From contig OZ024740.1 of the NCBI GenBank assembly GCA_964016885.1, positions 270,754,001 to 270,818,000 on the forward strand: a DNA stretch of 64,000 nt, in the 5' to 3' direction. This stretch comes from Eledone cirrhosa (lineage: Eukaryota). The translations under genes were made by a program, and so were the position numbers. Below the pieces are notes generated by a model. The model saw only the letters and a list, made by a program, of their open reading frames with translations, was not told the DNA's origin and did no database searches. This document shows positions 1,738 through 59,060 of this stretch, in pieces (the stretch's first letter is position 1; each line of letters begins with the position of its first letter).

Positions 1738-3402
1738 GTACCATAAAATATTCAACAGGCACACGGTTACCCAGCCAACCCCGAGTGATGGTAACCACGC
1801 GGTACATGTGGTGGAGCCTTAAGAAGTCATGTAATTGCAGAGACCCATCACTATGCCCCCTTAGTAATTAATGCATGACGAAAAACGTAGTCTACGGGTG
1901 CAAGGTCACAACCCCTAACTCGGAGCACCACTACATAGGATCCACAGCGACGAGCTTCAAATATCGGTGGTATAACCATCGCCATTCCTTTAACAGAATA
2001 GATAAGCCCTTTCTGAATTGATCTGGAAGCTCAAACTTGAAAAGACCCCACACTCTCTGCTCTGGTCCGTGGTTAGAAAGGTTCCCCCAGACAGAGGCGG
2101 GTCTGGTATTTGCAACCTCTGTCTTAGTGAGACACTCGAGATTCTTCATGGCGGAACCAAGCTATTAAACAGAAGGGCTGACTTATTCGGTGCCTGCAGA
2201 CACCTAAGGACGGGAACTTTCCTTAAGCTATATGAATAAACCCCGGTTAAAGCCTCCCACAACGCCCCCCCCTGTAGGTCCCCTACACCCCGTACCAATG
2301 ACCAATGGACAACAACAACCACCCATAGTTTGTGGTCCCTATGGTGGATGGTCCACCGGATCCTCTACTGGTTAGGAGTCATCAAAACCACGTTTTATTG
2401 AACCTGATTTTATATATATATATATTATATGTATATATATATATATTTTATATGTGTATATATATGTGTGTTTTATATGTATGTATGTATATATATGTAT
2501 GTATTTTATATATATATATGTGTATTTTATATATATATATGTATGTATATTTTATGTGTGTATATGTTTTATATATGTATATATTTTATATATATATATA
2601 TTTTGTATATATGTATATTTTATGTATATATATGTATTTTATATATATAAATGTATACTTGTGCGTACATATATATATATACACACCTGTATGGATTTGT
2701 GTGTGTAGATGTGTGTGTGTCTGAGGGGGTAGGTGTGAGTGTATGTACAAGTCAACCAACATAAGCTATTTATTTCTAAATTTTCTAAACTATCTAAGTA
2801 TTGGACTCTAACCATTATTTTAAGTATTACCACCCCACATTAATTCCTCAATTTGTATGTGTGGATGTGTGTGTGTGTCTGTGGTGCTGGGTGTGAGTGT
2901 ACGTGCAAGCCAACCTACATAAGTCTTTTTATTTGTAAATTCTCTACTCTAACCATAATTTTCAGTAGCACCATTCCACATAAATTCCTCAATTTAAGAA
3001 TGACCTGTAGTATCTATTTCATACTATTAACCTTAATTGAATATATATCTGACCAGGAATGCTTTTTGTGAAAATCAGTCATATGGAACTATTGTCATCT
3101 TGCCTGATGGTTTCAACTTTACAACACCACCTGCCTCTTTGAGGTTAAATACCAACCCTACTAGCATCTACAAACTGACCAATGAGAATTAACACTATTC
3201 CTGCTGACAACATTAAATTATTCCTAACAAGCTCATATGTCCCAAGGCTCTGATACCATCAACACTATAAACACAGAGCTGGCATATCTAAGAACTGACT
3301 AACTGCCTGATGAGGTCATAGCCATTCAATTGTTATCATCGAAATATATATAGCAGTAAATAAAGGATTGTGAGTTCATGCAATTGACTTATGTTTCGTC
3401 AC
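1738..3402 (+). mobile_element. 5'-truncated Penelope-like element (GIY-YIG remnant + 3' UTR with HHR) between (TA)n tracts
   Basis: CNCRDPSLCP linker, NVVYGCKV..HYIGSTATSFKYRWYNH, IWKLK..CNLCLSE..LLNRR..CRH; HHR at 3302-3357; TA runs on both sides. Confidence 0.85.
3302..3357 (+). ncRNA. Type I hammerhead ribozyme
   Basis: Stem I ACTGC/GCAGT, core CTGATGA (3307), GAAA, palindromic stem III ATATATAT, cleavage triplet ATA; stem II weak. Confidence 0.7.
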
Positions 3403-4133
3403 TATATATATATATATATATAAACTAGAAATAAATTGACATATATATATATATATATATAAAATAAACATAATAGAACAATCACAAACATATGGAACAA
3501 TCTCAATCTATTCATTGGAATCTTTGAGGTTATTCTACAGTGGATATGGTGCATGTCTATCAGACACTACAACCCTTAATTTAATTTTGGATATATACAC
3601 GGCCCCTTAATTGTAGAGCCAACTCAGTTGAATGGACTCGGCTGCTATTTCTAGCTGTCGACAATCCTATTCACGCCACTGGGATGATGCTGTGCGATGT
3701 GTGTATTTTTTAAAAATGCAACACGTGGTTCGAGTCATTCACAGATTTGCATTTGCTTTGTAAACGCAGATAGTTATCTTCTTCTCCTTTGGTGACCATC
3801 CAGGATTTGACTACTGTGATTTACTGATTAATAGGTGAAATATATTTTTTACTTAAAAAAAATATATACAAAGGAGATTAATCATTTTAAAAGGTATTTA
3901 AAAAGATATTTGAAGTTCTAGTTAAACTTTAATTGGTTACCTACCTAGCTATGTGTGATTACGTTCTTTACAAATTATTCCGTGATGGTTCCATATGTTT
4001 ATTTTATATATATATATGTCAATCTATTTCTAGTTGATATGAAATGCTCGGATCTATTCATTGGAATCTTTGAGCTTATTCTACAGTGGATATGGCGCAT
4101 GTCTCTCAGTCATGACAACCCTTAATTTAATTT

Positions 4134-6653: not shown

Positions 6654-6721
<68 letters not shown>

Positions 6722-6734
6722 ATATATATATATA

Positions 6735-6890: not shown

Positions 6891-6896
6891 TTAATA

Positions 6897-6941
<45 letters not shown>

Positions 6942-6946
<5 letters not shown>

Positions 6947-7091
6947 TATGTATATATATGTGAAAATGTATATAAATAAGTAAATATATATATATGTTTG
7001 ATGTGTATAGTTAGATGTAAGTGTATTCATGTATTAAAGTGCTTATATATATATATATATGTGTGTGTATGTGTATGTATGTGTATGTGTG

Positions 7092-7175
<84 letters not shown>

Positions 7176-7899
7176 AGTGTGTATGTATGTATGTGTATAT
7201 GGATGTGTATGTATGTGTATGTGTGTACACATGGACTAGAGTATGTATGTATATATGTGTGTGTCTATACGTGTGTATATATAAAGATAAGTTGAGTATG
7301 AAAATGTATACACATGAGCGCGTATGTATGTACATGAATACATGTGTGTATATATATGTGTATGCATGTGTATATATATGTAAGTATGAATATGTGAATT
7401 GTGAGTATATGTATTTTGTAGAGGTGTGCAAATATATTTGTGTGTGAATGCGTGGGTGAAAGAATACGTACACTTGAAAGAAAAATTTAAGTCTGAATGT
7501 TAAGTGCAAACACAAAACCAACCACGCATATCTTTACTATCTCTAATCCTTCTATAGATTTAGAAAAATAACCAATAATATATTCCATAAAAAATGTCAA
7601 AACAACAGATGGGAATCTAATTACTCACTGCCACCAAGAATTCTCACTGCTATCGAAAAACCACTCCTTCAACTATTCTTCTAACAACTTCACCCCTCCC
7701 TCCTAATATTCTCTATAAAAACTAAATAGGTCCTCAGTAATATTATTCTGATGAAATGACAGTAAATAATAACATTGAAATATTGAATGTCTGCATAACT
7801 AAAAGTTTGTAGATAGCTGTTTTAGGTTATGTAACTGTTATAGAAACACGTGTCAATAAATTCCTTTCAACTAAACTGTATCCATTCAAATCTTTCTAT
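6942..7899 (+). repeat. 5' pseudo-LTR
   Basis: Matches 10553-11516 apart from microsatellite length differences. Confidence 0.95.
7743..7859 (+). ncRNA. Type I hammerhead ribozyme with extended stem II
   Basis: TTATT-CTGATGA-A-ATGACAGT[~70 nt]ACTGTTAT-A-GAAACACGTGTC-AATAA; palindromic stem III ACACGTGT; GUC site at 7852-7854. Confidence 0.85.
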
Positions 7900-8063
7900 T
7901 TTTCTCCGGATTACTTTTGGAACTACAACTGGAACCGTCGAGCAAACTCTACGTGAGCTGATAATCTACTGTGTGTAATATTTATATTACAACACAACGG
8001 AAAATACTGTATATTTATCTCCTGTAAAGTCGAGCAACCCACACAGCAAACGCAACCACAACA

Positions 8064-10385
8064 ATGGAAAAACACTACCTGGATATGTCACTCAAAAACA
8101 TACCAACCCAAGGTAGAAAGGAATATTTATTGAGCATGATTCAAAAAACTAATGAATTCATTCGACGTGTCAGGTGGAAAACGCTCCACTATGATAGAAG
8201 CCGTATGAACTCAACATTAGAAAGTGGTGTAAACAACAAATTCGGTTTTAGGACTTGTAAAAACCCACCCACCAACCTACTATTAGATGCATTTGAGCAG
8301 GACCTTATGAACTTAATCCTTAAAATTAAATTCAAAGGACGCAACACCAACAGCAAATTACAGAAAGATATAAAAAAACTACTGGACGACCTTAAAAACA
8401 CCAAAGGAATTGTAGTAAAAGCGGACAAAACATCAAACCTGTACACTATGGATTGCACTACATACAACAACTTCATTCGAAAAGAATTACATAAAAAATA
8501 TAGAAAAACGAGTGAAGTAACCCTTAAGCACATCAATGATGAGGCATGCGAAATAGTGAAAAATCTCGGAATCGAAGATAGGACAGGACCACTCTTACCG
8601 GCGGTACCCACCTTCAATCTTAAGGACCACAAGGTAAACTTTGATAATGACCCTAAAATAAGATTAATCTGCCCCTCTAAATCAGATATAGGTAAAATAA
8701 GCAAATATATCTTAGATAGAATCATCCCCCAAATTAAGGCTAAGGTTAACATTAAACTCTGGGGGAAGACCCAAGAAGCAATAAGATGGTTTAATAGCAT
8801 TAGCAATAAGAATGAATCTAAGTTTATCCAGTTTGATATCGATGAATATTACTCATCGATATCACCTGAAACTTTGAATAGAGCCATTAAGTTTGCTAAG
8901 GATAACTCTGACCTTACAAACGATGAAATTAAGATTATATTAGAAGCTAGGAAAACTATAGTCAAATTTGAAAACAGTTATTGGGTACGTAAAGATAGAC
9001 CCTCTAACTTTGACATAACAATGGGCTCTAACGATTCGGCGGAAATAACTGATATTGTGGGGTTATTTATCGCCTTTAGACTCCAGGAAAAATTCAGCAA
9101 TCTCCACGGCGGAATATACCGCGACGATGTTCTCCTCCTAGCTAAAAACCTTAATAACCAAAAACTAGAAAAACTACGCAAAGATATAAGAAAACTACTA
9201 CTCGAAATAGGACTAACTATAACATATGAATACAACCTTAAAGTAGTTAACTTCCTGGATGTCACACTCAATTTAAACTCTGGTTTGATTAAACCGTTTC
9301 ATAAATTGAATGAAAATCTCAAATACGTAAATGTTGGGTCTAACCACCCCATCTCTATAATTAAATCTATCCCTAAAAATATTTCCCTTAGAATCTCGGG
9401 TCTATCTTCTAACATACAAGTATTTAAGGAACACGCCGAGTACTACGATAACGCCCTTAGTAAAGCAGGCTACCTCAACAAAATAGAGTACATAGATGGG
9501 AACAATCAAAACACCCAAAATAAATCCCACATAGGTAGATATAATAACACAACACCAAACCACACTTACTACCATAGTATGCACACCAGTAAACCAACAA
9601 ACAAAACTAATAGAAAGCGATGCAAAGAGTACTTATGGTATAACCCCGAATACAATAGCTCCATTAGTACAAATTTACCAGTACTCTTCTTTAAAATAAT
9701 TAAAAGACATTTTCCCACATCACACAAATACCACAAAATCCTAAACCCTACCACTATAAGACTGTCATACTCTACAGCGTTAAACCTTGAACAACACATA
9801 AAAAAGATCAATACTAGAAGGTTAAACGAAAACACTAAGAACTTAAGTACAAAGAACCCCAAAAAAACAGTAGACAATACACTACAGAACATAAATAAAC
9901 CACACCTAAGTTCGTCCGCAATACTACTCCAGAGAAAACCCAACGTACACAACTGTAACTGCACCTATCCTGACAACTGCCCCCTCGGCAATAACTGCCT
10001 GGAAAAAAATATTATTTATAAGTGTACCATTAAATCCGGAGGCAACGAGTGGTATTACGTGGGATCAACGGCAACATCGTTTAAATCTCGATTGTATAGG
10101 CATTCTTACTCAATAAAACACCAGAGCCAAAGAAATGTAACAACTTTAGCAGAAAAAGCTTGGACGCTTAGGGATAGCAATCAAAAGTTTACCCTAAAAT
10201 GGGAAAAATTAGCTAAAACCCAAAGCTTTTCCAGGAGCCAAAATTTCTGCAAATTGTGTAATCTTGAGATTTATTACATAATCACACACAAGAAGAAACT
10301 GCTGAATAACAGAATTGAACGAACATTATTCTGCCGTCACAGAACTAAAACCCTTTTTTCCCACTACAAGCCGAATATTACATAA
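8064..10385 (+). CDS. PLE polyprotein: reverse transcriptase + GIY-YIG endonuclease (773 aa)
   Basis: VVKADKT, LKDHK, IRLICP, FDIDEYYSSI, FDITMGSNDSAE, GIYRDDVL, VNFLDVTL, SNHP; CNCx5CP linker; IIYKC..YYVGST..FKSRLYRH; CKLC..E..LLNNR..CRH; no stops. Confidence 0.95.
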   Translation: MEKHYLDMSLKNIPTQGRKEYLLSMIQKTNEFIRRVRWKTLHYDRSRMNSTLESGVNNKFGFRTCKNPPTNLLLDAFEQDLMNLILKIKFKGRNTNSKLQKDIKKLLDDLKNTKGIVVKADKTSNLYTMDCTTYNNFIRKELHKKYRKTSEVTLKHINDEACEIVKNLGIEDRTGPLLPAVPTFNLKDHKVNFDNDPKIRLICPSKSDIGKISKYILDRIIPQIKAKVNIKLWGKTQEAIRWFNSISNKNESKFIQFDIDEYYSSISPETLNRAIKFAKDNSDLTNDEIKIILEARKTIVKFENSYWVRKDRPSNFDITMGSNDSAEITDIVGLFIAFRLQEKFSNLHGGIYRDDVLLLAKNLNNQKLEKLRKDIRKLLLEIGLTITYEYNLKVVNFLDVTLNLNSGLIKPFHKLNENLKYVNVGSNHPISIIKSIPKNISLRISGLSSNIQVFKEHAEYYDNALSKAGYLNKIEYIDGNNQNTQNKSHIGRYNNTTPNHTYYHSMHTSKPTNKTNRKRCKEYLWYNPEYNSSISTNLPVLFFKIIKRHFPTSHKYHKILNPTTIRLSYSTALNLEQHIKKINTRRLNENTKNLSTKNPKKTVDNTLQNINKPHLSSSAILLQRKPNVHNCNCTYPDNCPLGNNCLEKNIIYKCTIKSGGNEWYYVGSTATSFKSRLYRHSYSIKHQSQRNVTTLAEKAWTLRDSNQKFTLKWEKLAKTQSFSRSQNFCKLCNLEIYYIITHKKKLLNNRIERTLFCRHRTKTLFSHYKPNIT

Positions 10386-10552
10386 AAGAGGGACATCCCC
10401 CAACTATATAAACCTTAATCTAGTTAGAAAAATATAAAAACAATCTCTTCTCAACATATATTAATAACCTTAAATTACCATACTAATAATGAAAAGATAT
10501 GCTGATGAGAATAGGTACAAATATGCGATAATGAATGTGTCTAAAAACGTCC

Positions 10553-10704
10553 ATAAGTATGTATATATATGTGAAAATGTATATAAATAAGTAAATATAT
10601 ATATATGTTTGATGTGTATAGTTAGATGTAAGTGTATTCATGTATTAAAGTGCTTATATATATATATATATATGTGTGTGTATGTGTATGTATGTGTATG
10701 TGTG

Positions 10705-10792
<88 letters not shown>

Positions 10793-11510
10793 AGTGTGTA
10801 TGTATGTATGTGTATATGGATGTGTATGTATGTGTATGTGTGTACACATGGACTAGAGTATGTATGTATATATGTGTGTGTCTATACGTGTGTATATATA
10901 AAGATAAGTTGAGTATGAAAATGTATACACATGAGCGCGTATGTATGTACATGAATACATGTGTGTATATATATGTGTATGCATGTGTATATATATGTAA
11001 GTATGAATATGTGAATTGTGAGTATATGTATTTTGTAGAGGTGTGCAAATATATTTGTGTGTGAATGCGTGGGTGAAAGAATACGTACACTTGAAAGAAA
11101 AATTTAAGTCTGAATGTTAAGTGCAAACACAAAACCAACCACGCATATCTTTACTATCTCTAATCCTTCTATAGATTTAGAAAAATAACCAATAATATAT
11201 TCCATAAAAAATGTCAAAACAACAGATGGGAATCTAATTACTCACTGCCACCAAGAATTCTCACTGCTATCGAAAAACCACTCCTTCAACTATTCTTCTA
11301 ACAACTTCACCCCTCCCTCCTAATATTCTCTATAAAAACTAAATAGGTCCTCAGTAATATTATTCTGATGAAATGACAGTAAATAATAACATTGAAATAT
11401 TGAATGTCTGCATAACTAAAAGTTTGTAGATAGCTGTTTTAGGTTATGTAACTGTTATAGAAACACGTGTCAATAAATTCCTTTCAACTAAACTGTATCC
11501 ATTCAAATCT

Positions 11511-11516
<6 letters not shown>
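10553..11516 (+). repeat. 3' pseudo-LTR
   Basis: Copy of 6942-7899. Confidence 0.95.
11360..11476 (+). ncRNA. Type I hammerhead ribozyme (3' pLTR copy)
   Basis: Identical to 7743-7859 at offset 3617; GUC at 11469-11471. Confidence 0.85.
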
Positions 11517-11545
<29 letters not shown>

Positions 11546-11548
<3 letters not shown>

Positions 11549-12223: not shown

Positions 12224-12269
<46 letters not shown>

Positions 12270-12565
12270 CCGCATGTATCTGTGTGTTTCTAATTATATT
12301 GTTAATAACTCCCTCTGGTCGAGCAATCTTTGAAGTGTGGGGACAGCTGGAAGGCTTCCATTACTCATACTTCTCGCCTTCTTCACCACCTCTTCTGCGG
12401 CCTCGATATAAATACCCCCTCCGCCTCCGTGGTATTTTCTTCGGGGTTATAAGAGGCTTAGCTCTGTTTCTCGACCGTTATATCGCGTGACTATCTCCCC
12501 CTCCGCCTTTTGGGATTCTTTCTCACGTCGTGTAGACGCGTTCTTGAGACTAGTAAAATGAGGTA

Positions 12566-12655
12566 TCCTCTTGATAAGTCGGCAGACCTCGCAAGGACTC
12601 TATGTCTTTATGATATATTGTTTTTGTTTATGCCACGAAACTACGTAGTCGAGGA
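12566..12655 (+). ncRNA. Type I hammerhead ribozyme, U3-A8 core variant
   Basis: TCCTC-TTGATAA-GTCGGCA...TGCCAC-GAAACTACGTAGTC-GAGGA. Confidence 0.8.
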
Positions 12656-13160
12656 ATTTAGGAGCAGTTTAGGTATGATACATTTTATTACTAATTATAT
12701 CTAAATGTTTCTTCTCTCTTCATAATGTATTTTTAACTCTGATACTGGTTCAGTCTAGTTCAACTGAATTGGTCTGTCCCAGTCATTCATTGAGCAACAT
12801 CGGTGAAGTTGGCACCCTTAACTCACAGTTGGGTGCGGATGCATTCATGTATATATGTGTGTGTCCGCATGTATCTGTGTGTTTCTAATTATATTGTTAA
12901 TAACTCCCTCTGGTCGAGCAATCTTTGAAGTGTGGGGACAGCTGGAAGGCTTCCATTACTCATACTTCTCGCCTTCTTCACCACCTCTTCTGCGGCCTCG
13001 ATATAAATACCCCCTCCGCCTCCGTGGTATTTTCTTCGGGGTTATAAGAGGCTTAGCTCTGTTTCTCGACCGTTATATCGCGTGACTATCTCCCCCTCCG
13101 CCTTTTGGGATTCTTTCTCACGTCGTGTAGACGCGTTCTTGAGACTAGTAAAATGAGGTA

Positions 13161-13250
13161 TCCTCTTGATAAGTCGGCAGACCTCGCAAGGACTCTATGT
13201 CTTTATGATATATTGTTTTTGTTTATGCCACGAAACTACGTAGTCGAGGA
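13161..13250 (+). ncRNA. Type I hammerhead ribozyme, U3-A8 core variant (copy 2)
   Basis: Identical to 12566-12655. Confidence 0.8.
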
Positions 13251-13319
13251 ATTTAGGAGCAGTTTAGGTATGATACATTTTATTACTAATTATATCTAAA
13301 TGTTTCTTCTCTCTTCATA

Positions 13320-13351
<32 letters not shown>

Positions 13352-23267: not shown

Positions 23268-24263
23268 TGAGAACATCAAAATTGCTCCTGTAGAATCAAA
23301 AGTGAATGCTCATTGCAATGTAAATGCAACACCAAAGCCATTGTATATGCGGCTAAAGTGACAGCCATCAGCAACAACCAACCAGCCACCAGTGAACGAT
23401 ATGTGGGTATGACGCAAGACAAATTCAAAACGCGTTATTACTCACATGTCGCATCCTTTCGACACCCAGAAAAAAGATTCACAACAGCTCTGGCTAGCAG
23501 AATATGGTATTTGAAAGACCAAGGTATCCAATATAAATTGGATTGGTCAATTTTGAACCAATCTAAAGAATATGCAAGAGGAAAAAGAAAATGCACGCTC
23601 TGCATAAATGAAAAATATTGGATTTTGCAAAACCTTAAATCACCAAAGACCTACCTAAACACAAAGACAGAAATGTTCACCAGTTGCCCACACATGAAAT
23701 CACACCTACTTTCCAGCTCATATAAACTTAACACACTTTCAGATACTTATCCTCCATAAGCTCATATTCTTCACTTAAATCATTCTCTTTAAGACTACCT
23801 TTTCTGGTTTACTTTCATTTTTAACCTTATTATTAATTATATTTTTATTTTTATTTTTATTTCACATCCACCACTACCCCCCCTTTATTCTCCGATTCAC
23901 TTACCTAATATCTTCAGTTTCCACTTTTTACTTCCCTATTTTCTTCCCTACCTGATTACTCAAATCACTTGCGTTTTCCACTCCAGATATTTTCTGTTAT
24001 TTCGCAGCCAAATTTATATTTTTATATTTGTACTCACTTATTCACAAGGCTGTTTTTTACACCCTGTATCTATGTGTCTGAGCGTCTTTATGTGTGTATA
24101 CTTTCTGTATATGTACACGAACGCCTACGTATGTGCGCGCGCGTGCGTGTATATATATATGTGTATGTATGTGTGTTTTTATATCTGAGTTTTTACATCT
24201 ATGTTTTTTTACATTCTTATTTTTATGTGTGTGCATGTAAGCGGGTCAACGTGCGTGAGTGTA

Positions 24264-24304
<41 letters not shown>

Positions 24305-25155
24305 ACTGCATGTATGGATGTGTATGTGTGCGTTTGTATATATATATATATATTTATGTGTGTGTATATGTGTGTGTGTATGTAGTCGCATACGTACGCG
24401 TGATTAGATATAGATGGGGCGATGTGTATGTATATATATATGTGCATCCTGTGTGTGTATGTACGCTTGCATACGCTTTTGTCTGCACGTATTGCGTGTA
24501 TATATATATTTTTTATAGATATATGTTTCTTATAGATATATGTGTATGTACGCGTGTACCTTGTTTGTTTCCTTTTCTTTACTTTGCAATTTTTTCTTTC
24601 TAAATTATTGTTCCATTTTTATAAATATATCGAGAATGACACTTTCTTTTTACTATTACACTCCCTTACCCCTTTTTCTTCCGCATATAAGTGTACGCGC
24701 GTGTGTGTGTGTTTATACGCGTGCCTTCATATTCTTATAATGTATCTAATACCCTGTTTTTCTGTATACCTGTCAACCGGACACTCATGTTATGTCTGTG
24801 TCTGTGGTTACCTATACACAGATATACTTGCCCTCATCTATATATTTACGCACACATTTTCACTATACACGCACATTTGTACGTACATACATATGTACAT
24901 CTGTGAGTGTATATACATACAAATACACACACCTAACTATATTTCCTTAAACATTTTTTTATTTATTTATATGTATATTGTATTATTTATATATATATAA
25001 TTTTTTTTTGCATTTCTTGAGGAGACTTTCCAAATATTTCACTATGTTTTATATTACCTCGTCCGACGAACGAATGAAGACGTTTCTTTCGTATTCGTCT
25101 TATTCGGGAAACCTCTGGTAATGAGGTAATTATATTGTATTGTTTTTTATACATT
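23268..25155 (+). mobile_element. 5'-truncated PLE: GIY-YIG domain (ORF 23313-23759) + long 3' UTR + HHR
   Basis: [54 protein letters not shown]; TA-flanked. Confidence 0.85.
25053..25130 (+). ncRNA. Type I hammerhead ribozyme (CCGACGA core)
   Basis: 10-bp stem I ATTACCTCGT/ATGAGGTAAT, stem II CGAATGAAGACG/CGTCTTATTCG, GAAACC TCT GGTA. Confidence 0.8.

Positions 25156-27872: not shown

Positions 27873-27876
<4 letters not shown>
27742..27876. repeat. Perfect palindrome (~67-bp arms, 1-nt spacer)
   Basis: Arms are reverse complements centred on 27809. Confidence 0.9.
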
Positions 27877-27926
<50 letters not shown>

Positions 27927-29967: not shown

Positions 29968-30356
29968 CATATCTATATATATATATATATATGTATATAC
30001 ATATATGTATATATGTATATATATATATATAATGTGTGTGTATGTATGTATATATACATATAATAGCCAGGAAAAAAGAATCAAGATTGCTTATTATATA
30101 CGTTCTATTGTCATATGACATGTGTTTCGTTCCGGATCAGCTCACGGGAAGGCCGTATTAACTGCATCCGTTACAACCGCTGATATCCGCTGAAAATACT
30201 CATGACGAAATCCACTACGATAGTTAAACCCATGTAAGAGTATCGAGTACTCAAATTGGTGCACCAGCTGTAACTAACGTTACACAGAACTATAAATATA
30301 TATATATATATATACGATATTAAATAAATGGAAATTATATTTATAAAACCATATTT

Positions 30357-30420
30357 ATTTCATTATATATATTTCAGGGATATCATATTAACAATATGTT
30401 ATGCCTTCTTCAGACAAAAT
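30357..30420 (-). ncRNA. Type I hammerhead ribozyme
   Basis: ATTTTGT-CTGAAGA-AGG..CATATT GTT AATATG..CCT-GAAATATATATA-ATGAAAT. Confidence 0.75.
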
Positions 30421-30526
30421 ACAATATAGACAGTTTTATAAATAAATAGATTTGACATACCTTTCAACATCGACTTGTATTTGAAAAGTTGATTTGGCAG
30501 TAAAAATATTATGGATAGTTGTAAAC

Positions 30527-30565
<39 letters not shown>

Positions 30566-31769
30566 AAAACGAAGAAAAAGAAGAAATGCATGCAACTAAA
30601 TAGAGAGAGATGGAAAGATAGATAAAGAGAAAAACTTCATGTAAAGAAACAGAGAGAGATATATAGAGAGAGGAAATAGATAGAGATAGATAGATATAGA
30701 TAGAGAAAAGTAGGTAGTTGAACATCAGTTGAATGACGTATCAATGATACATTTATTTATTTATTTATTTATTTAGCTCTAGTATTAATGTAAGGGAGAT
30801 ATATGTGGTTAGGAGAGAAAACAGCCGTTATATAGAGAGAAAAAAGAAAAATGAAAAGTAACCAGACATAGGCGAGGCAGAATTTAAAACACTATGTTTC
30901 AATGTAGAAATATTAGTTCGTATAAAAACAGGCACTATAATGTAAATATCAGTATTTATGAATGAGACACGTATCTATAATGTGTGAAAAGTAATGATCA
31001 TATGTCTAGTTTTAAGAATTCATATGTTTATATCATAACTATAAACATCGATGTGAATTTACGTGATCAGCTCTGCAAACTCCTATTTCACACGGAAAAC
31101 ATTCTCATTGTGCTATAAAAATTCAAGTATACATATATGTGTATATATACACACATATATATAGAGTCTATATTAATTTTAACAATACTATTCTTGTCTT
31201 TACTCTACATGATTATCGATCAAGCAGAAATAGAGAACAGATTTCAATATATTAATAAAAATAAAAATATCAGAAACAAAAACAAAAATAAAAATAAAAA
31301 TAATAAATAAATAAAACAGAAAACTAAAAAATATTAAATATTAAAAATAAAAATAAAAATATTAAAAATATTAAAAAAATATTAAAAAATAAAAAAATAT
31401 TAAAATAATAAAAAAATAAAAACATAGTATGCCCCGCAAATCGACCACAAAGATCAACCCTTCAAAGTTAATTGACAATATATTGCCAAGTTCATTATAA
31501 GCATCAGAGTCAAAAACAGATAAAACCAAAAATTATTTACCAAATCCCGTCTAGCAGAAATCATTTCAAAAGTTTAGGATACCCAATTGGTCTACATATG
31601 TTCTTATATTTAATATAGAAGTTTATCTAGTGTAACATTTATTCGATATATTTGGAGCATCAACTTTTAGGGTAGTTTAATTATTCATGAAGAATGTTTA
31701 AAATAAAAAGAAGAAATCGAAAGATTTATCGGCTAGTTTCATAAATAATTACAAATCAAACTAAATATA

Positions 31770-32564
31770 CTACATTTTAAATTTAAATTTATATTTAAAA
31801 GTTGAGTTCAATCTATGTCTGCAGCAACTGAATAAATTTGTCCGTAGATTAAGGGAATTTTTAGATTTTAGTATAAAGAATATCTCCTCCGCACAGAGGT
31901 CACATGTCTCAGAGGATGAATTAAAAGGGATCCCTCTTGAGACTATATTCCAAGCCGTCGAATATCTAACGTTATCATGCCTAAGTTGCCAGAGTACGCC
32001 TGATAGTGCTGTTGAAGATTTTTTGCTTGGATCTGTGAAAGAATTCTTGTGGTTATTATAGCGAAGTTTAAATTCCGTCGATGTGGAACCAACGTAGTTA
32101 AAAGAATTAAAGTCCGTTTTAACATTACAGTTGTATATTATATTTTTAACTAAGCAGTTGTTATTTAACGGACATTTCGATCTATCTCTACAGTTACATT
32201 TGTTAACTTGGATATTATTTATGCTATTATCGCTAGGTTTTAAGTTCCTATTATTTATTCTATTAATATTTTGTGCTAAATTTTTGGTGGATGAGTAGGT
32301 TAATTTTATAGTATGTCTATTGAAAATTGAGTGATACCTATGTGTTCTAGGGAAGCGATTATCAAGAGCTTTAAAAAATAGTTTAGCGATGTGGGTTTTA
32401 ATGTTTAGTGAGAAAGGGGGGGCAAACCATATTATATTCCTAGTTCTATTTCTTTTTTGGCTTTTGGAATTATTGTAATGCTTTCTATTATAGTTGTTAA
32501 GGTTGTGGCCGTAATTAAAATAGTTGTTATTTTGTTTAGTTTGTCTATCATTATCTATGTACAT
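31770..32564 (-). pseudogene. Truncated PLE ORF (thumb end, linker, GIY-YIG)
   Basis: IIWFAPPFS, CNCRDRSKCPL, IIYNC..NYVGSTSTEFKLRYNNH, CDLC..E, CRH. Confidence 0.9.
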
Positions 32565-32695
32565 AATTTTATCACTATATCCTGCTCTAGCTAACGCTTC
32601 ATTGTAGTACTGGGCTTTTTCGTCGAAAATCTTTCGACAAAAAAGCCCAGTACTACAATGAAGCGTTAGCTAGAGCAGGATATAGTGATAAAATT

Positions 32696-33490
32696 ATGTA
32701 CATAGATAATGATAGACAAACTAAACAAAATAACAACTATTTTAATTACGGCCACAACCTTAACAACTATAATAGAAAGCATTACAATAATTCCAAAAGC
32801 CAAAAAAGAAATAGAACTAGGAATATAATATGGTTTGCCCCCCCTTTCTCACTAAACATTAAAACCCACATCGCTAAACTATTTTTTAAAGCTCTTGATA
32901 ATCGCTTCCCTAGAACACATAGGTATCACTCAATTTTCAATAGACATACTATAAAATTAACCTACTCATCCACCAAAAATTTAGCACAAAATATTAATAG
33001 AATAAATAATAGGAACTTAAAACCTAGCGATAATAGCATAAATAATATCCAAGTTAACAAATGTAACTGTAGAGATAGATCGAAATGTCCGTTAAATAAC
33101 AACTGCTTAGTTAAAAATATAATATACAACTGTAATGTTAAAACGGACTTTAATTCTTTTAACTACGTTGGTTCCACATCGACGGAATTTAAACTTCGCT
33201 ATAATAACCACAAGAATTCTTTCACAGATCCAAGCAAAAAATCTTCAACAGCACTATCAGGCGTACTCTGGCAACTTAGGCATGATAACGTTAGATATTC
33301 GACGGCTTGGAATATAGTCTCAAGAGGGATCTCTTTTAATTCATCCTCTGAGACATGTGACCTCTGTGCGGAGGAGATATTCTTTATACTAAAATCTAAA
33401 AATTCCCTTAATCTACGGACAAATTTATTCAGTTGCTGCAGACATAGATTGAACTCAACTTTTAAATATAAATTTAAATTTAAAATGTAG
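32696..33490 (+). pseudogene. Truncated PLE ORF, mirror copy
   Basis: Same 264 aa with one difference (GIP vs GIS). Confidence 0.9.
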
Positions 33491-34695
33491 TATATTTAGT
33501 TTGATTTGTAATTATTTATGAAACTAGCCGATAAATCTTTCGATTTCTTCTTTTTATTTTAAACATTCTTCATGAATAATTAAACTACCCTAAAAGTTGA
33601 TGCTCCAAATATATCGAATAAATGTTACACTAGATAAACTTCTATATTAAATATAAGAACATATGTAGACCAATTGGGTATCCTAAACTTTTGAAATGAT
33701 TTCTGCTAGACGGGATTTGGTAAATAATTTTTGGTTTTATCTGTTTTTGACTCTGATGCTTATAATGAACTTGGCAATATATTGTCAATTAACTTTGAAG
33801 GGTTGATCTTTGTGGTCGATTTGCGGGGCATACTATGTTTTTATTTTTTTATTATTTTAATATTTTTTTTATTTTTTAATATTTTTTTAATATTTTTAAT
33901 ATTTTTATTTTTATTTTTAATATTTAATATTTTTTAGTTTTCTGTTTTATTTATTTATTATTTTTATTTTTACTTTTGTTTTTGTTTCTGATATTTTTAT
34001 TTTTATTAATATATTGAAATCTGTTCTCTATTTCTGCTTGATCGATAATCATGTAGAGTAAAGACAAGAATGGTATTGTTAAAATTAATATAGACTCTAT
34101 ATATATGTGTGTATATATACACATATATGTATACTTGAATTTTTATAGCACAATGAGAATGTTTTCCGTGTGAAATAGGAGTTTGCAGAGCTGATCACGT
34201 AAATTCACATCGATGTTTATAGTTATGATATAAACATATGAATTCTTAAAACTAGACATATGATCATTACTTTTCACACATTATAGATACGTGTCTCATT
34301 CATAAATACTGATATTTACATTATAATGCCTGTTTTTATACGAACTAATATTTCTACATTGAAACATAGTGTTTTAAATTCTGCCTCGCCTATGTCTGGT
34401 TACTTTTCATTTTTCTTTTTTCTCTCTATATAACGGCTGTTTTCTCTCCTAACCACATATATCTCCCTTACATTAATACTAGAGCTAAATAAATAAATAA
34501 ATAAATAAATGTATCATTGATACGTCATTCAACTGATGTTCAACTACCTACTTTTCTTTATCTATATCTATCTATCTCTATCTATTTCCTCTCTCTATAT
34601 ATCTCTCTCTGTTTCTTTACATGAAGTTTTTCTCTTTATCTATCTTTCTATCTCTCTCTATTTAGTTGCATGCATTTCTTCTTTTTCTTCGTTTT

Positions 34696-34730
<35 letters not shown>

Positions 34731-34836
34731 GTTTACAACTGTCCATAATATTTTTACTGCCAAATCAACTTTTCAAATGCAAGTCGATGTTGAAAGGTAT
34801 GTCAAATCTATTTATTTATAAGACTGTCTATATTGT

Positions 34837-34900
34837 ATTTTGTCTGAAGAAGGCATAACATATTGTTAATATGATATCCCTGAAATATATATAATGAAAT
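34837..34900 (+). ncRNA. Type I hammerhead ribozyme (mirror copy)
   Basis: Reverse complement of 30357-30420. Confidence 0.75.
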
Positions 34901-35028
34901 AAATATGGTTTTATAAATATAATTTCCATTTATTTAATATCGTAAATATACTCCAAATACTTGTTGAGTGCTTTTATATCAGTTATAAATATTTACTCGT
35001 TGTAACCCAACAATTTAAATATAACTTT

Positions 35029-35077
<49 letters not shown>

Positions 35078-35683: not shown

Positions 35684-35684
<1 letters not shown>

Positions 35685-36395
35685 CAGATGCAGAGAACGT
35701 AACGTGATCTACCAATGCAACGTGAGGATGGAAAACTCCAACAGAGCCTATATAGGATTAACAGCTTGTGACTTTAAGACCCGGCTCTACCAACACCGAC
35801 ATACGTTCCGAAACCCGGCCCGGTGACATGCCACCACACTTTTGGGCCACATCTGGGACCTGCAACGTAATAACATAACATACCATCTTACTTGGAGCTT
35901 ACTGTGCAGGACTAACTCCTACACGGGAGGACGCCGTCCGTGTAACTTATGCTCGGAGGAAACAATACAAATGCTGTTTACGAAGGACCAACTCCTAAAC
36001 AAAAAAGACGAACTTGTAATGGCATGTAAACACCGATTGCGTAGGACTTACCTCGCCCTCAAACCCCCTCATGATCCAGGTGGGTAGACAACAGCTGAAA
36101 CATCCTTCTTTTCCCCACTTTCCGAACAATATAGGGGAAACACCAGCATACATAGGTAAATGTACTTCTTTCTTTTTCCCTCTTTCTCGACTTATCACTT
36201 CCTTCCGCCCCCTCTCCTCTTTCTTTTCCATTTTCCTCTTTAGCCTACCCTGAGGCAGCCCATCGGGCTTCTGTAGCCTCAGTACCCCCACCCCAGTAAA
36301 TTATATATAGCTTTGGCTGAAAACGCAATACCACCTAAAAATATAGCAGCTGCTTTAGACTCTGTAGGTTTATTTTATTATTCTTTTAATATTTA
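35684..36395 (+). mobile_element. PLE GIY-YIG remnant
   Basis: NVIYQCNV..AYIGLTACDFKTRLYQH..HIWDL..CNLCSEE..LLNKKDELVMACKH; internal stop. Confidence 0.8.
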
Positions 36396-36423
36396 ACGCA
36401 CACACACACACACACACACACAC

Positions 36424-37109: not shown

Positions 37110-38330
<1,221 letters not shown>

Positions 38331-44270: not shown

Positions 44271-46962
44271 ATTTATTAAATAACAGATTAAAGTTTAAGC
44301 AAAGAATCGCTGCTTTCACCCCTTAACGGGATCTTCTGAAACTAACAAAGTCAATCTGTAAACGCAGAAGTGGATATTTAAAAAAACGTTGCAACCGGAG
44401 GAAGACAGGAAGACGATACTTTGGTTCGTGGAAACGATCCCTGGCAAAGAACGGGAAAAAACGAATATAATACGTCATTAATAGGAGCGGTGAAAAACAA
44501 TTACACGCAAAGACAGAACCACATTTATGGTATAAAAGAAGTCGTAGACTAATGTTCTCTTAGGTGATTCTTAGAGACCTTCTCTGGCAATGAACGGAAA
44601 AAATGAAGATAATACGTCATATGTGGAGCGTGGAGAACAATTGCACGCAAAGACAAAACCACGTAAATGGTATAGCTGAAGTTGTAGACTAAAATTCTAA
44701 CTAGGAAACCGAAAGAAACTCCGCTTCAGAGTTAAGAATGAAGTAAATAAAATACAATACAGAGGTAATAGAAATTAAATAAATACATACACGCATGCAA
44801 ATACGTACATACACAAGCATACGCGAAAACACTTGCCATAGGTATACAAAACCACGCACATATAAATATGTATGTGTGTGTGTGCGTGTATACAAATAAA
44901 TAAATAAACGTATATAAATAAATAAATACGTATATAACAAGCGCACACACATACCTACATGTAAATACACAAATGTTCGGGTACCACGTCAACCAAAACA
45001 TGATGTACACATATACACACACCCTACATACGTACGAACCTGCATACTCACGCAGACGCAAAACTCCCGTATACACATAACCAAACCATATGTACCAGAA
45101 TATATAAAAAATTATACGCCATAACAATAACATATACAATCCTGGACCGGCCGAACCTCTGGACTCTATTTCTCCGCACTTTACCCTGAAGGATCACAAA
45201 TCCAATTTTCCGAACAACCCCTCTATTCGGCTTATTAACCCCACGAAGTCCGACTTAGGTAGACTTAGTAAAAGCATTCTTGATAGAATTATACCTGAAA
45301 TTAGAAGTTTGGCCCCTCTTGCACTGTGGAATAATTCTTTCGCAGTGATTGATTGGTTCAACGGCATATGCAACAAGGAACATTGCCGTTTTATCCAATT
45401 CGACATCAACAATTACTAATCCTCCATCACTTTACCACTTCTCCTTAGAGCTATCAATTTTGCTAAAACACTCACAGTGGTTAAGGATTTCGAAATTGAT
45501 GTCATCCTCAATGCCCGTAAGTCGGTGATTAATTTCGACGACTCTATTTGGATTAAAAAATCCAATAGTATCCCATTCGACGTGAGTATGGGCGCCAGTG
45601 ATTCTGCGGAGGTTACTGATTTTATCGGCCTTTTCCTTCTTTTCTCTATCAAGGACGAATTCCCCAACGTGGGCGGTGGTTTGTACCGTGACGATGGTCT
45701 TTTGACGATGACTAAGTGCGGACCTCGTGCTTGCGACAGGTTCAGAAAAGAACTCACCGCCTTCTTTAAAGGCTTCAACCTCTCTATACAGGTTGAGGCC
45801 AATCTCTCGGTCGTTAATTACCTCGACGTTACCCTCAATTTATCGAATGGCTTGTATTACCCGTATAGAAAGCCGAATGATACGCTTAATTACATAAGTA
45901 AGCATTCCAACCATCCTGCCAGCATAACCAAGAACCTGGTAAGAAACGTTTCGTTCAGGCTTTCCCGTCTATCTACTAACGAGCATATTTTCAACGACCA
46001 TTCCACTTATTACAATGAAGCACTTGCTCAGAGTGGATTTGTCGATAAGTTAGCATATACAGAGTACGAAAATAGACCTAGAAGAAATAGATCCTGTTGC
46101 ATTTGTTGGTATAACCCACCATATAATATGGAGGTAGCCACACCATTAGCTAAGATCTTTCTTTCCCTTATTACGAAGCATTTTCCCCCCTACACATAAA
46201 TATAGTAACATTTTTAATAGAAATACTATTAAAATTTCTTACTCTACGACTCCTAACCTTGCACATAACATCACAGCTTCAATTTTAGATAAACTACCTA
46301 GCCGTAGGAACACGTGCAACCCTGTAGTTAGTACTAACTGTAATTGTAGGAATCGGGTTGATTGATCCCTATCCGGGAAATGCCTCTCTAGTAACATTGT
46401 CTACAAATGTAAGGTTGAAACACCCACGTCCCGTAGGGCCTACATAGGATTAACCGCCAATAGATTCAAGCAGCGTCTTTACATGCATACCCATTCTTTT
46501 CGTTACCCTCTAAGAAGGAATATGACGTCACTTTCAGCTTATATCTGGAGTCTAAAAGACAACCACACCCAATATAAGTTACACTGGGAGATCCTAGCTA
46601 GGGCTAGATCGTATAACGGAAATAAAAGACCATGTGACCTCTGCGCCGTTGAGGCCCTGGAAATACTCTACGCCACAGACCACATCTTAAACAAAAAAAT
46701 CTGAGGCAATTTCGGCTTGTAAACATAAATTGCACAAAACCTTCCTGTATTACAGCCCCACATTATACCCTAACGGATAGTACGATCTATACGTGGATAT
46801 TTTACGTCCAGATGTGGTAGCTAAGTATATGTTATGTTTATACCATTACTTATTTGCTTAGGTAAGTATATATTACCTGTATGTTTTGTGAAGGTACGTA
46901 TACTTTCTCGTACGTATATTTGATTGTATATGTTATGGCGTATAATTTTTTATATATTCTGG
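44271..46962 (+). mobile_element. Degenerate Hydra-like PLE (RT+EN ~45150-46780) with inverted 3' UTR upstream (44271-45140)
   Basis: LKDHK..IRLINP..FIQFDINNY*..FDVSMGASDSAE..GLYRDDG..SNHP..YIGLTAN..CDLC with stops and frameshifts; 45095-45140 is the reverse complement of ~46922-46962. Confidence 0.88.
44292..44343 (-). ncRNA. Hammerhead motif (CAGAAGA core)
   Basis: AGTTT-CAGAAGA-TCCC GTTAA GGGG-T-GAAAGCA..TGCT-T-AAACT. Confidence 0.55.
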
Positions 46963-49193: not shown

Positions 49194-49367
<174 letters not shown>

Positions 49368-49665
49368 TGAAACAAAATGAAAACGAAATTTCATTTCTCA
49401 CTCTTAGTATGGCACTTACTTAAATGTAAGTATGCATGTATACGTACATACATATATGTATACAGACGTAGAGTAGCATGCACATATATATATATATATA
49501 CATATATATATACATATGCATACAGGTACACATACATATATGCACGTATCAGTTTAGCGGCGCTAACGTCGCTTTGTTCGTTTGTAAACAAACTGAACAG
49601 CCTGAATTTATGCCATACGGTGTTAAGGCAACCACGTCACCTTTTTGTTCAACACTGACACAGGA

Positions 49666-49708
49666 ACGATGTACTAGTTTCAAGCTTGTTAGCTATCATC
49701 AGCACCGT
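49666..49708 (-). ncRNA. Minimal type I hammerhead (unit 1)
   Basis: ACGGTG-CTGATGA-TAGCT AACA AGCTT-GAAACTAGT-A-CATCGT; GUA site. Confidence 0.88.
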
Positions 49709-50133
49709 TTACCCATCTGCCAGATAGTTGAACGTTCGAAAGTATATACTTTCCTTATGAAAATTAACGGCTGAGCAGCCTAATTTGCATATTGAGTGAG
49801 TTAAATCGGTCAGGCATACCGAAAACGATAAATTGAAACAAAATGAAAACGAAATTTCATTTCTCACTCTTAGTATGGCACTTACTTAAATGTAAGTATG
49901 CATGTATACGTACATACATATATGTATACAGACGTAGAGTAGCATGCACATATATATATATATATATACATATATATATACATATGCATACAGGTACACA
50001 TACATATATGCACGTATCAGTTTAGCGGCGCTAACGTCGCTTTGTTCGTTTGTAAACAAACTGAACAGCCTGAATTTATGCCATACGGTGTTAAGGCAAC
50101 CACGTCACCTTTTTGTTCAACACTGACACAGGA

Positions 50134-50176
50134 ACGATGTACTAGTTTCAAGCTTGTTAGCTATCATCAGCACCGT
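50134..50176 (-). ncRNA. Minimal type I hammerhead (unit 2)
   Basis: Identical to unit 1. Confidence 0.88.
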
Positions 50177-50601
50177 TTACCCATCTGCCAGATAGTTGAA
50201 CGTTCGAAAGTATATACTTTCCTTATGAAAATTAACGGCTGAGCAGCCTAATTTGCATATTGAGTGAGTTAAATCGGTCAGGCATACCGAAAACGATAAA
50301 TTGAAACAAAATGAAAACGAAATTTCATTTCTCACTCTTAGTATGGCACTTACTTAAATGTAAGTATGCATGTATACGTACATACATATATGTATACAGA
50401 CGTAGAGTAGCATGCACATATATATATATATATATACATATATATATACATATGCATACAGGTACACATACATATATGCACGTATCAGTTTAGCGGCGCT
50501 AACGTCGCTTTGTTCGTTTGTAAACAAACTGAACAGCCTGAATTTATGCCATACGGTGTTAAGGCAACCACGTCACCTTTTTGTTCAACACTGACACAGG
50601 A

Positions 50602-50644
50602 ACGATGTACTAGTTTCAAGCTTGTTAGCTATCATCAGCACCGT
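50602..50644 (-). ncRNA. Minimal type I hammerhead (unit 3)
   Basis: Identical to unit 1. Confidence 0.88.
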
Positions 50645-51067
50645 TTACCCATCTGCCAGATAGTTGAACGTTCGAAAGTATATACTTTCCTTATGAAAAT
50701 TAACGGCTGAGCAGCCTAATTTGCATATTGAGTGAGTTAAATCGGTCAGGCATACCGAAAACGATAAATTGAAACAAAATGAAAACGAAATTTCATTTCT
50801 CACTCTTAGTATGGCACTTACTTAAATGTAAGTATGCATGTATACGTACATACATATATGTATACAGACGTAGAGTAGCATGCACATATATATATATATA
50901 TACATATATATATACATATGCATACAGGTACACATACATATATGCACGTATCAGTTTAGCGGCGCTAACGTCGCTTTGTTCGTTTGTAAACAAACTGAAC
51001 AGCCTGAATTTATGCCATACGGTGTTAAGGCAACCACGTCACCTTTTTGTTCAACACTGACACAGGA

Positions 51068-51110
51068 ACGATGTACTAGTTTCAAGCTTGTTAGCTATCA
51101 TCAGCACCGT
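51068..51110 (-). ncRNA. Minimal type I hammerhead (unit 4)
   Basis: Identical to unit 1. Confidence 0.88.
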
Positions 51111-51533
51111 TTACCCATCTGCCAGATAGTTGAACGTTCGAAAGTATATACTTTCCTTATGAAAATTAACGGCTGAGCAGCCTAATTTGCATATTGAGTG
51201 AGTTAAATCGGTCAGGCATACCGAAAACGATAAATTGAAACAAAATGAAAACGAAATTTCATTTCTCACTCTTAGTATGGCACTTACTTAAATGTAAGTA
51301 TGCATGTATACGTACATACATATATGTATACAGACGTAGAGTAGCATGCACATATATATATATATATACATATATATATACATATGCATACAGGTACACA
51401 TACATATATGCACGTATCAGTTTAGCGGCGCTAACGTCGCTTTGTTCGTTTGTAAACAAACTGAACAGCCTGAATTTATGCCATACGGTGTTAAGGCAAC
51501 CACGTCACCTTTTTGTTCAACACTGACACAGGA

Positions 51534-51576
51534 ACGATGTACTAGTTTCAAGCTTGTTAGCTATCATCAGCACCGT
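51534..51576 (-). ncRNA. Minimal type I hammerhead (unit 5)
   Basis: Identical to unit 1. Confidence 0.88.
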
Positions 51577-51751
51577 TTACCCATCTGCCAGATAGTTGAA
51601 CGTTCGAAAGTATATACTTTCCTTATGAAAATTAACGGCTGAGCAGCCTAATTTGCATATTGAGTGAGTTAAATCGGTCAGGCATACCGAAAACGATAAA
51701 TTGAAACAAAATGAAAACGAAATTTCATTTCTCACTCTTAGTATGGCACTT

Positions 51752-57457: not shown

Positions 57458-57459
57458 TA

Positions 57460-59060
<1,601 letters not shown>

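Follow-up and report, generated by a model that had tools for sequence, protein, structure and literature searches.

Penelope-like elements (PLEs) of the Hydra clade are defined by the motifs RWK and DKT, loss of CCHH, a CxCx5C linker, CxxC and CxH motifs around E and N of the endonuclease (EN), a hammerhead ribozyme and insertion into (TA)n (Craig et al. 2021, PMC8557442). The same source already lists Hydra-1_Obim, a (TA)n family of 2507 bp from Octopus bimaculoides; both the clade and its preference for (TA)n have been published, as has a family from Octopus. In the literature covered here, the full-length PLE with known biochemistry is a Poseidon element (PMC11167929), and the enzyme that mobilises animal retrozymes has been inferred only. 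We analysed 64,000 nucleotides from Eledone cirrhosa (contig OZ024740.1, positions 270,754,001 to 270,818,000; below, the window), in which a PLE at 6942 to 11516 had been predicted to be intact, recently inserted into TA and a possible driver of non-autonomous hammerhead elements. It is an intact, young, TA-associated Hydra-clade PLE. The clade is known; the family is new, with a long untranslated region (UTR) and a ribozyme of variant form.

The element itself is no surprise, since its clade, the TA preference and the presence in Octopus are published. Its value is that of a reagent and a pointer: an intact young Hydra open reading frame (ORF), a defined start of reverse transcription and two candidate client RNAs occur in one region. 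Thus, Hydra biochemistry and the question of the retrozyme mover become directly testable. New here are the 88-nt helix II arm of the ribozyme, seven further Hydra-type loci, a 466-bp retrozyme family that has no unique sequence in common with the PLE and a 595-bp non-coding tandem.

Structure and clade of the element

The uninterrupted ORF was confirmed (773 aa, ATG 8064 to the stop at 10385, plus strand). It begins at the same point as in homologues and is hence full length. With a pseudo-long terminal repeat (pLTR) on either side, it has the partial tandem structure of PLEs. The CTGATGA hammerhead cores at 7748 and 11365 are 3617 nt apart, as originally predicted; this spacing is the unit, and the insertion was computed as 1.26 units (predicted about 1.27). 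The 3' end lies 42 nt past the hammerhead cut after C11471, and TA tracts abut both ends, as had been claimed (Table 1).

The pLTRs (958 and 964 nt) were predicted to differ in microsatellite length alone. Divergence, proposed as a check, was 0 mismatches in 958 nt with 6 gap columns, which are one 2-nt and one 4-nt TA-length difference. For 0 substitutions over about 950 sites the upper 95% bound of divergence is 0.32%. With the octopus calibration, in which a distance of 0.09 equals 25 million years (My) (PMC13282606), the insertion would be under about 0.45 My old, assuming no homogenisation of the repeats by conversion or assembly. Against this young age it has to be said that gene conversion or assembly polishing can likewise yield identical pLTRs. 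The 773-aa ORF family has a single copy within the window. The 209-nt leader contains no ATG (2.6 expected, P about 0.07).

Pfam detected no family in the ORF at E 0.1, neither RT (reverse transcriptase) nor EN, and a profile search against PDB sequences gave no real match. These blanks are due to divergence; the identity of both domains hence needed evidence from fold and profiles. The RT motifs are RWK (aa 37), DKT (aa 121) and YRDD (aa 352). CxCx5C (aa 631), CxxC (aa 729) and CRH, a CxH motif (aa 757), were found in the EN region. The GIY-YIG residues Y652, Y665-G667, R676, H680, E735 and N748 are intact and conserved in at least 90% of 121 sequences; a Cys pair within the GIY-YIG core (CCHH) is absent from the query. 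A homologue search gave 292 matches, mostly unnamed proteins of about 705 aa (median 705, compared with 773 here). The best showed 43% identity over 76% of the length, so the element represents a distinct family. An exhaustive search returned 436 clusters at E 1e-30 or better, thus the group is large. Among 120 listed homologues YRDD was present in 118, DKT in 112, CxCx5C in 104 and RWK in 86, the CCHH-type Cys pair in none.

An AlphaFold model from the 121-sequence alignment reached pLDDT 90.3, with two low-confidence inserts. Its top match was telomerase RT in Foldseek (E 7.4e-9) and telomerase in VIA (Z 16.1, rmsd 4.3, 301 aligned residues); the modelled RT fold is telomerase-like. A profile match to canonical PLEs spanned RT and EN (probability 99.8). 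Furthermore, profile comparison aligned the C-terminal domain with the EN of PF01541-bearing PLEs, and the Atlas score was 0.95-0.96 against GIY-YIG-named clusters. It counts against the EN assignment that no solved GIY-YIG structure appeared in the Foldseek and VIA lists for the whole model, because the RT fills these lists. The EN domain modelled alone gave pLDDT 38, and a dedicated search found no EN-only homologues. A telomerase-like RT and a GIY-YIG domain in the same ORF (Y, Y-G, R, H, E, N), as in EN+ PLEs, were both found. Some PLE proteins (the P0105/P0129/P0144 set) are publicly misnamed, e.g. as 'GATA zinc finger domain-containing protein 14-like' in Argonauta; proteins of the set are also assigned to bacterial metagenome-assembled genomes, which suggests animal contamination of the bins.

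The element shares with the described Hydra clade a single ORF with C-terminal GIY-YIG, RWK, DKT, CxCx5C, CxxC and CxH without CCHH, as well as YRDD, a hammerhead near the 3' end and (TA)n insertion (PMC8557442). RWK 37 is present and the N-terminal GxKF/Y is not conserved (no GxKF/Y-type match); DKG is changed to DKT at aa 121. The linker carries CxCx5C, and CxxC and CxH surround E/N. The EN is C-terminal without an insertion-in-fingers domain, no insertion being seen between RT motifs 3 and 4 in the profile alignment against canonical PLEs. The hammerhead has a canonical core, three helices and a cut 42 nt from the end, and (TA)n occurs at both ends of this copy and at most related loci. The CCHH of Penelope/Poseidon, Neptune and Nematis is absent from the query EN, and the N-terminal EN of Naiad/Chlamys differs from its C-terminal one. 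Published Hydra proteins, read by eye, carry YRDD and the same N-terminal pattern. The Hydra fit proposed from YRDD, CxCx5C and CxxC..CRH is thus upheld, every published motif being present.

Length departs from the reference clade: the unit of 3617 nt compares with generally less than 3 kb in Hydra and 2507 bp in Hydra-1_Obim, for which no pLTR was seen (PMC8557442). The excess is the 3' UTR, a 1.1-kb microsatellite-rich stretch that distinguishes this PLE from the reference elements. As the source says 'generally', we read this as variation, not exclusion.

A tree of the RT core (54 rows) contained 28 of the 120 listed homologues, 23 of 120 listed relatives of a second PLE at 47 kb and three window sequences; P0121 and P0123 were left out, their RT being too short. 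The query group of 28 YRDD/RWK homologues was split from the YVDD set at 100/100. Within it, five rows form a group (100/99) that includes the query, the 45-kb fragment and a protein of Argonauta hians whose composition was flagged as unusual. A weakness of the placement is that named reference proteins are not among the rows, so it rests on motifs and the by-eye comparison with published sequences.

The 47-kb PLE (46866-48254, plus strand), which had been contrasted with the query as YVDD/CCHH Poseidon type, does show YVDD and CCHH. A Cys pair before YVG occurs in 72/120 of its relatives and in 0/120 homologues of the query. The label Poseidon is doubtful: the 5'-truncated copy has a Cys-rich C-x4-C-x6/7-C linker, and since Poseidon lacks the linker, its sequence may be Nematis-like rather than Poseidon. 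This linker is also present in the nearest homologues and absent from two insect-derived matches listed. The 47-kb PLE has a 55% match in Octopus bimaculoides, and its 3' region contains no intact CTGANGA core.

Table 1 Positions in the window of the element's parts, related loci and candidate clients
Feature	Position	Strand	Remarks
5' (TA)n target tract	6894..6941		ATA microhomology with start of 5' pLTR
5' pLTR, last 0.26 unit	6942..7899	+	internal (TA)22 and TG/TA tracts
Hammerhead copy 1, type I	7743..7859	+	core 7748-7754; 88-nt helix II arm; palindromic helix III; predicted cut after C7854
Leader, cut to start codon	7855..8063	+	209 nt, ATG-free; TAT/TTTT tandem junction 7897-7903; GTCGAGCAA at 7937 and 8029
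Single ORF, 773 aa	8064..10385	+	telomerase-like RT (about aa 1-490) and C-terminal GIY-YIG endonuclease
CxCx5C linker and GIY-YIG domain	9939..10382	+	conserved residues and motif positions in text
3' UTR	10386..11513	+	1128 nt; 32% in alternating purine/pyrimidine runs, including (TA)24
3' pLTR	10553..11516	+	direct repeat of 6942-7899
Hammerhead copy 2	11360..11476	+	core 11365; helix II 11373-11458; GAA 11460; cut after C11471
3' (TA)16 tract	11514..11545		common, tail-to-tail, to 3' end of opposite-strand hammerhead element (core 11659)
595-bp non-coding unit, partial tandem of 1.8 units	12252..13325	+	TA both sides; cores 12571, 13166; cuts 12650, 13245; GTCGAGCAA at 12318, 12913
466-bp retrozyme array, at least 5.1 units	49362..51751	-	relatives 5929-6494, 59070-59692
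Hydra-type, 5'-truncated	1742..3404	+	TA both ends; hammerhead core 3307
Hydra-type, 5'-truncated	23271..25155	+	TA both ends; C4-core hammerhead 25063
Hydra-type, head-to-head palindrome	30314..35031		4.65-kb palindrome at 30307-34950, 99.2%, no spacer; its two 3' tails (49 and 137 nt) run up to TA
Hydra-type, 5'-truncated fragment	35684..36400	+	starts at TA
Hydra-type, 5'-truncated fragment	37358..38327	-	starts near TA
Broken Hydra-type copy, other family	45096..46865	+	41% aa identity to query
Hydra-type, 5'-truncated	56328..57460	+	TA both ends; C4-core hammerhead 57216; 94-nt helix II arm

Hammerhead ribozyme and proposed cycle

Hammerhead positions are given in the usual numbering (3-8 pair, 10.1/11.1), and AATAAA is the poly(A) hexamer. 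The core positions of the predicted hammerheads stood, whereas the fold is not compact: the catalytic GAA (11460 in copy 2) follows 88 nt after the core, and the predicted cut at GUC falls after C11471 and, in copy 1, after C7854. With this GAA the three helices have 5, 8 and 4 bp. Helix I consists of the 5 bp, with AATAAA forming its 3' arm. The 8 bp of helix II (pair probabilities 0.78-1.0) close an 86-nt rod (z -4.3, 0/200 shuffles). Helix III is a loop-less 8-nt palindrome that closes solely as a dimer, with a self-dimer energy of -10.3 kcal/mol. Use of the first GAAA (11394) would give a compact hammerhead in which helix I cannot form, and this reading was rejected.

Several results weigh against an efficient ribozyme. 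The hammerhead-competent monomer fold lies 3.8 kcal/mol above the minimum, helix I has a pairing probability below 0.1, and, taken as a whole, the 167-nt hammerhead region does not surpass its shuffles in folding (z -0.95), which the helix II arm alone does. Cleavage may hence be weak or absent; a monomer is expected to be a poor self-cutter that depends on dimerisation or on the protein. Dimer-dependent regulation has been proposed for PLE hammerheads (PMC4209133).

No Rfam hammerhead was detected at gathering score, and none at E 10 over 5800-13500. Rfam miRNA matches were rejected as TA/TG low-complexity artefacts. A strict hammerhead descriptor found 14 cores in the window, compared with a mean of 0.01 (maximum 1) in 100 block-wise dinucleotide shuffles. 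Tabulation of the window gave 11 hammerheads with a long helix II arm (25-94 nt), a count that leaves out the internal copy 7748 and a doubtful one at 18304. Those at 3307, 25063, 30413/34844 and 57216 stand at the 3' ends of Hydra-type ORF fragments of four other families. The 88-nt arm of this PLE contrasts with a loop 2 of 3-10 nt in 26/26 Hydra rows; longer loops are reported elsewhere, for PLE-X1_sMoe (PMC8557442) and the mammalian discontinuous hammerhead (PMC6765202). No description of long-arm Hydra or cephalopod hammerheads was found in literature searches; the work of Lunse et al. on PLE hammerhead variants may already contain such forms. Covariation for the long helix II is thin, with one two-sided change in predicted pairs in three pairwise alignments. 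That Rfam overlooks long-arm and variant-core hammerheads even at E 10 suggests that counts underestimate the ribozymes and retrozymes of such genomes.

CCGANGA (C4) cores were seen at 25063, 57216 and 4365-4642 (minus strand); a solo copy of the 57216 family at about 4.5 kb has the same C4 core and long arm. Further short or minimal hammerhead families lie near TA tracts at 22246 (-), 54416 (-), 15652 (+), 26676 (+), 29180/29188 and 36734 (+) and are not linked to ORFs.

The identity as a PLE together with the following cycle in cis is, in our view, highly probable. Transcription would be driven by the upstream pLTR, as a review describes for PLEs. The RT-EN protein would bind its own RNA and nick (TA)n. 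The freed 3'-OH would then start reverse transcription at a constant UAU, 42 nt past the site of hammerhead cleavage, probably by matching the nicked (TA)n over 2-3 nt. As the DNA copy includes these 42 nt, a linear monomer cut on both sides is excluded as template, which would be either read-through RNA left uncleaved or a circle formed by re-ligation. Copying would cover 1.26 units and stop on ATA microhomology. With the (TA)22-24 of its pLTR, each insertion would deliver a new target.

The Poseidon element PAc of Anolis carolinensis is comparable in RT and GIY-YIG, partial tandem, AT-rich target, weak ribozyme and an internal RT start downstream of the hammerhead. PAc nicks AT-rich DNA and initiates internally, and hammerhead cleavage is dispensable in vitro (PMC11167929). 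It differs in its CCHH-type clade, a hammerhead overlapping the start codon and cutting at ATT, not (TA)n. Its initiation site is without homology to the cut DNA, unlike the microhomology priming proposed here, and this speaks against that step (PMC11167929).

The ribozyme could also act as an off-switch, cutting away the poly(A) signal and the tail with the RT start, so that only uncut RNA transposes. We regard this role as possible, though it is not the one we favour. Of the long-arm hammerheads, 9/11 (5/7 with families pooled) have AATAAA no more than 8 nt from the cut, as have 1/9 of the short-arm ones; the background is 0.03, or 0.17 in A-rich matched windows, and with 18304 added, the count is 9/12. 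Such an AATAAA may be there only to pair with the U-rich 5' arm in helix I, and the 209-nt ATG-free post-cut leader and the more-than-unit lengths are equally consistent with a circle. The dispensable cleavage of PAc in vitro (PMC11167929) fits the off-switch, as does the mammalian hammerhead, which removes a poly(A) signal in this way (PMC6765202). On the link between hammerhead cut and poly(A) signal only this review surfaced in a literature search (PMC6765202).

TA association and other Hydra-type loci

Seven further Hydra-type loci were found in the window, with EN identities of 25-49% to the query (45-kb copy: RT 41%). No DNA alignment of the PLE to these loci was obtained outside low-complexity sequence. 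The eight loci span about 27% of the window, with boundaries set by hand. The palindrome (Table 1) fits an inverted insertion of a 5'-truncated PLE with two RT starts; alternatively, it may be a fold-back artefact of assembly.

The window bears out the predicted TA preference. The 3' ends of 8/11 long-arm hammerheads reach (TA)5 within 60 nt of the cut (p 4e-6; 8/12 with 18304), and 5/7 of the other Hydra-type loci start within 60 nt of (TA)5 (p 4e-4), with a background of 0.116. TA/TAT microhomology with the target was found at 4/4 3' junctions and at 2/2 5' junctions with a checkable internal copy. These counts are weakened by three points: (TA)5 or longer tracts make up 13% of the window, TA tracts stop tblastn alignments and so inflate the 5'-end count, and related families are not independent.

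The association might be passive, with elements landing in AT-rich DNA and TA tracts growing later from junction dinucleotides or the element UTR. The 13% of (TA)5+ sequence would agree with this, as would the (TA)22-24 of the PLE's own 3' UTR and a target-site duplication that is unreadable within TA. However, even this copy without substitutions is flanked on both sides by long pure tracts, its 3' tract also borders an older opposite-strand element, and 26/27 reference Hydra rows show (TA)n preference (PMC8557442). A passive origin is therefore most unlikely, and we retain the TA preference.

Among the 3' UTRs of other Hydra-type loci, 2/6 are similarly rich in alternating runs and 4/6 are not. 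A CCATYY tail motif, present at 5/20 hammerhead-linked TA junctions vs 1/138 others (p 1e-4), was kept as a weak lead, since it was chosen post hoc and is, in related families, to some extent the arm of a hairpin. Extended tracts based on (TA)n, 0.7-3.2 kb in length, occur at 41100-44276, 57460-59059 and 27873-28573.

Candidate clients and neighbourhood

PLEs have been proposed as mobilisers of animal retrozymes (PMC7229834; bioRxiv 10.64898/2026.07.22.740005). Like the non-LTR retrozymes of these sources, the 466-bp and 595-bp units are non-coding, arranged head-to-tail and strongly folded by prediction, with one type I hammerhead per unit. The original prediction that the PLE could drive non-autonomous hammerhead elements holds in part. 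Trans mobilisation of such elements by a PLE-type enzyme is plausible, whereas this copy is not the unique driver, since seven other Hydra-type loci are present, as is a CCHH-type PLE, and homology to the 466-bp family was not found. For this copy, driving other repeats is a reasonable hypothesis at class level, not established; the best candidates for moving the window's TA-bounded non-coding hammerhead elements are Hydra-type enzymes, taken as a group. The non-autonomous partners of Chlamys PLEs are described as similar to their drivers at the 3' end, whereas neither unit here matches the 3' end of the PLE.

The 595-bp tandem lies 0.7 kb downstream of the PLE, with 3 mismatches in 479 nt between its units. 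The longest stop-free frame is 87 aa, and with a type I hammerhead in each unit it is retrozyme-like. Both units have a U3-A8 hammerhead (2 vs 0 in 60 shuffles), in which the arm of helix II measures 59 nt (z -4.3) and helix III is a palindrome of 10 nt; the folding z of the unit is -7.1. It ends 77 nt after the cut, with a TAT/TTTT junction as in the PLE. The unit is larger than the 170-400 nt retrozyme RNAs of PMC7229834 and within the 51-972 bp of bioRxiv 10.64898/2026.07.22.740005. Unlike animal retrozymes, it is TA-bounded with a PLE-like tail, and its U3-A8 core and 59-nt arm would be missed by a C3-G8 descriptor. The U3-A8 variant is known from Schistosoma Cercyon PLEs, which have the same core covariation; they differ in carrying mostly single minimal motifs, compared with the full helix III palindrome, long helix II and tandem non-coding structure of the 595-bp element (PMC4209133).

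The 9-mer GTCGAGCAA occurs four times in the window (0.37 expected), twice in the PLE leader and twice in the 595-bp tandem, and 0.4% of shuffled units contain it; for leaders, the comparison covers the PLE alone, those of the other window families being lost. On this circumstantial sequence evidence the 595-bp tandem appears to be a better client candidate for this copy than the 466-bp array, and the best one. That it is a client of this PLE family, recognised through GTCGAGCAA downstream of the RT start, is a tentative proposal which we rate as rather doubtful. All four window matches of GTCGAGCA are in the PLE and the 595-bp tandem (4/4, 0.37 expected), and both elements have the TAT/TTTT junction, a long helix II arm, TA flanks, similar youth and a palindromic helix III without a loop, followed by the GUC cut. 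The region of PAc that binds the protein likewise lies 3' of the RT start (PMC11167929), and the 8-mer of the motif occurs in the 5' UTR of Hydra-1_Ajap (PMC8557442). On the other hand, the motif was chosen post hoc from two independent families only, no other homology between tandem and PLE could be aligned, and the 77-nt tail has no AATAAA. Moreover, 8/9 occurrences of the 8-mer in the published supplement are outside Hydra, and it is absent from the 5' UTR of Hydra-1_Obim (PMC8557442).

The copy number of the 466-bp array is a lower bound, as a 200-N gap (51752-51951) adjoins its 5' side. Its unit has a predicted folding z of -8.1. When pLTR, leader and hammerhead with tail of the PLE were compared with the 466-bp family and four other repeats, 0/42 comparisons beat all shuffles; similarity between PLE and retrozyme was rejected as TA/TG runs only. 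The tails of two further long-arm families have an 11-mer in common with the 466-bp family. This is a weak lead, as 2/7 of the 11-mer's matches lie in a tRNA-like tandem without hammerhead. A specific role of this PLE family as driver of the array and its relatives is quite unlikely. The two are both young and hammerhead-bearing and end in TAT at a TA tract, and the array hammerhead has an extra unpaired 10.1/11.1 position like many reference Hydra hammerheads (PMC8557442). PLEs are also the proposed movers of such retrozymes in the sources cited above (PMC7229834; bioRxiv 10.64898/2026.07.22.740005). However, none of 18 comparisons between the three unique parts of the PLE and the three members of the family exceeded all shuffles, the helix II arm has 14 nt vs 88 in the PLE, and GTCGAGCA is lacking. 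Furthermore, the family ends about 220-305 nt past the cut, compared with 34-54 nt for most long-arm hammerheads, the 11-mer is shared with two other long-arm families instead, and eight other PLE loci are in the window.

A wider scenario, unlikely as a whole, would be an octopod Hydra sub-lineage with 25-94-nt helix II arms that escape standard searches, (TA)n nicking, 2-3-nt UA(U) priming, mobilisation of non-coding long-arm clients such as the 595-bp U3-A8 element through a short shared motif downstream of the RT start, a ribozyme-gated poly(A)/RT-start tail and (TA)20+ UTRs that seed targets. If true, this seeding would be a feed-forward loop and would help to account for a genome rich in TA and dense in PLEs.

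Between the PLE and the 595-bp element, inverted hammerhead-bearing ends (cores 11659 minus and 11955 plus, 85% alike) occupy 11546-12225; here one hammerhead element follows another, linked by TA tracts. Upstream of the PLE, the translation of 6736-6890 (+), between two TA tracts, presumably resembles the C-terminal part of an RTE-type LINE. A 260-bp partial tandem (98.9%) at 22655-23088 (+) includes a tRNA-Ser(CGA)-like gene (22881-22953) and has TA on the right. No hammerhead was found in this tandem, which is possibly another TA-targeted non-autonomous element. Finally, a dispersed SINE-like family, 80-95% alike, occurs at 17448-17635, 18750-18893, 20908-21111, 39081-39486, 54696-54827, 59868-60073 and 60983-61080.

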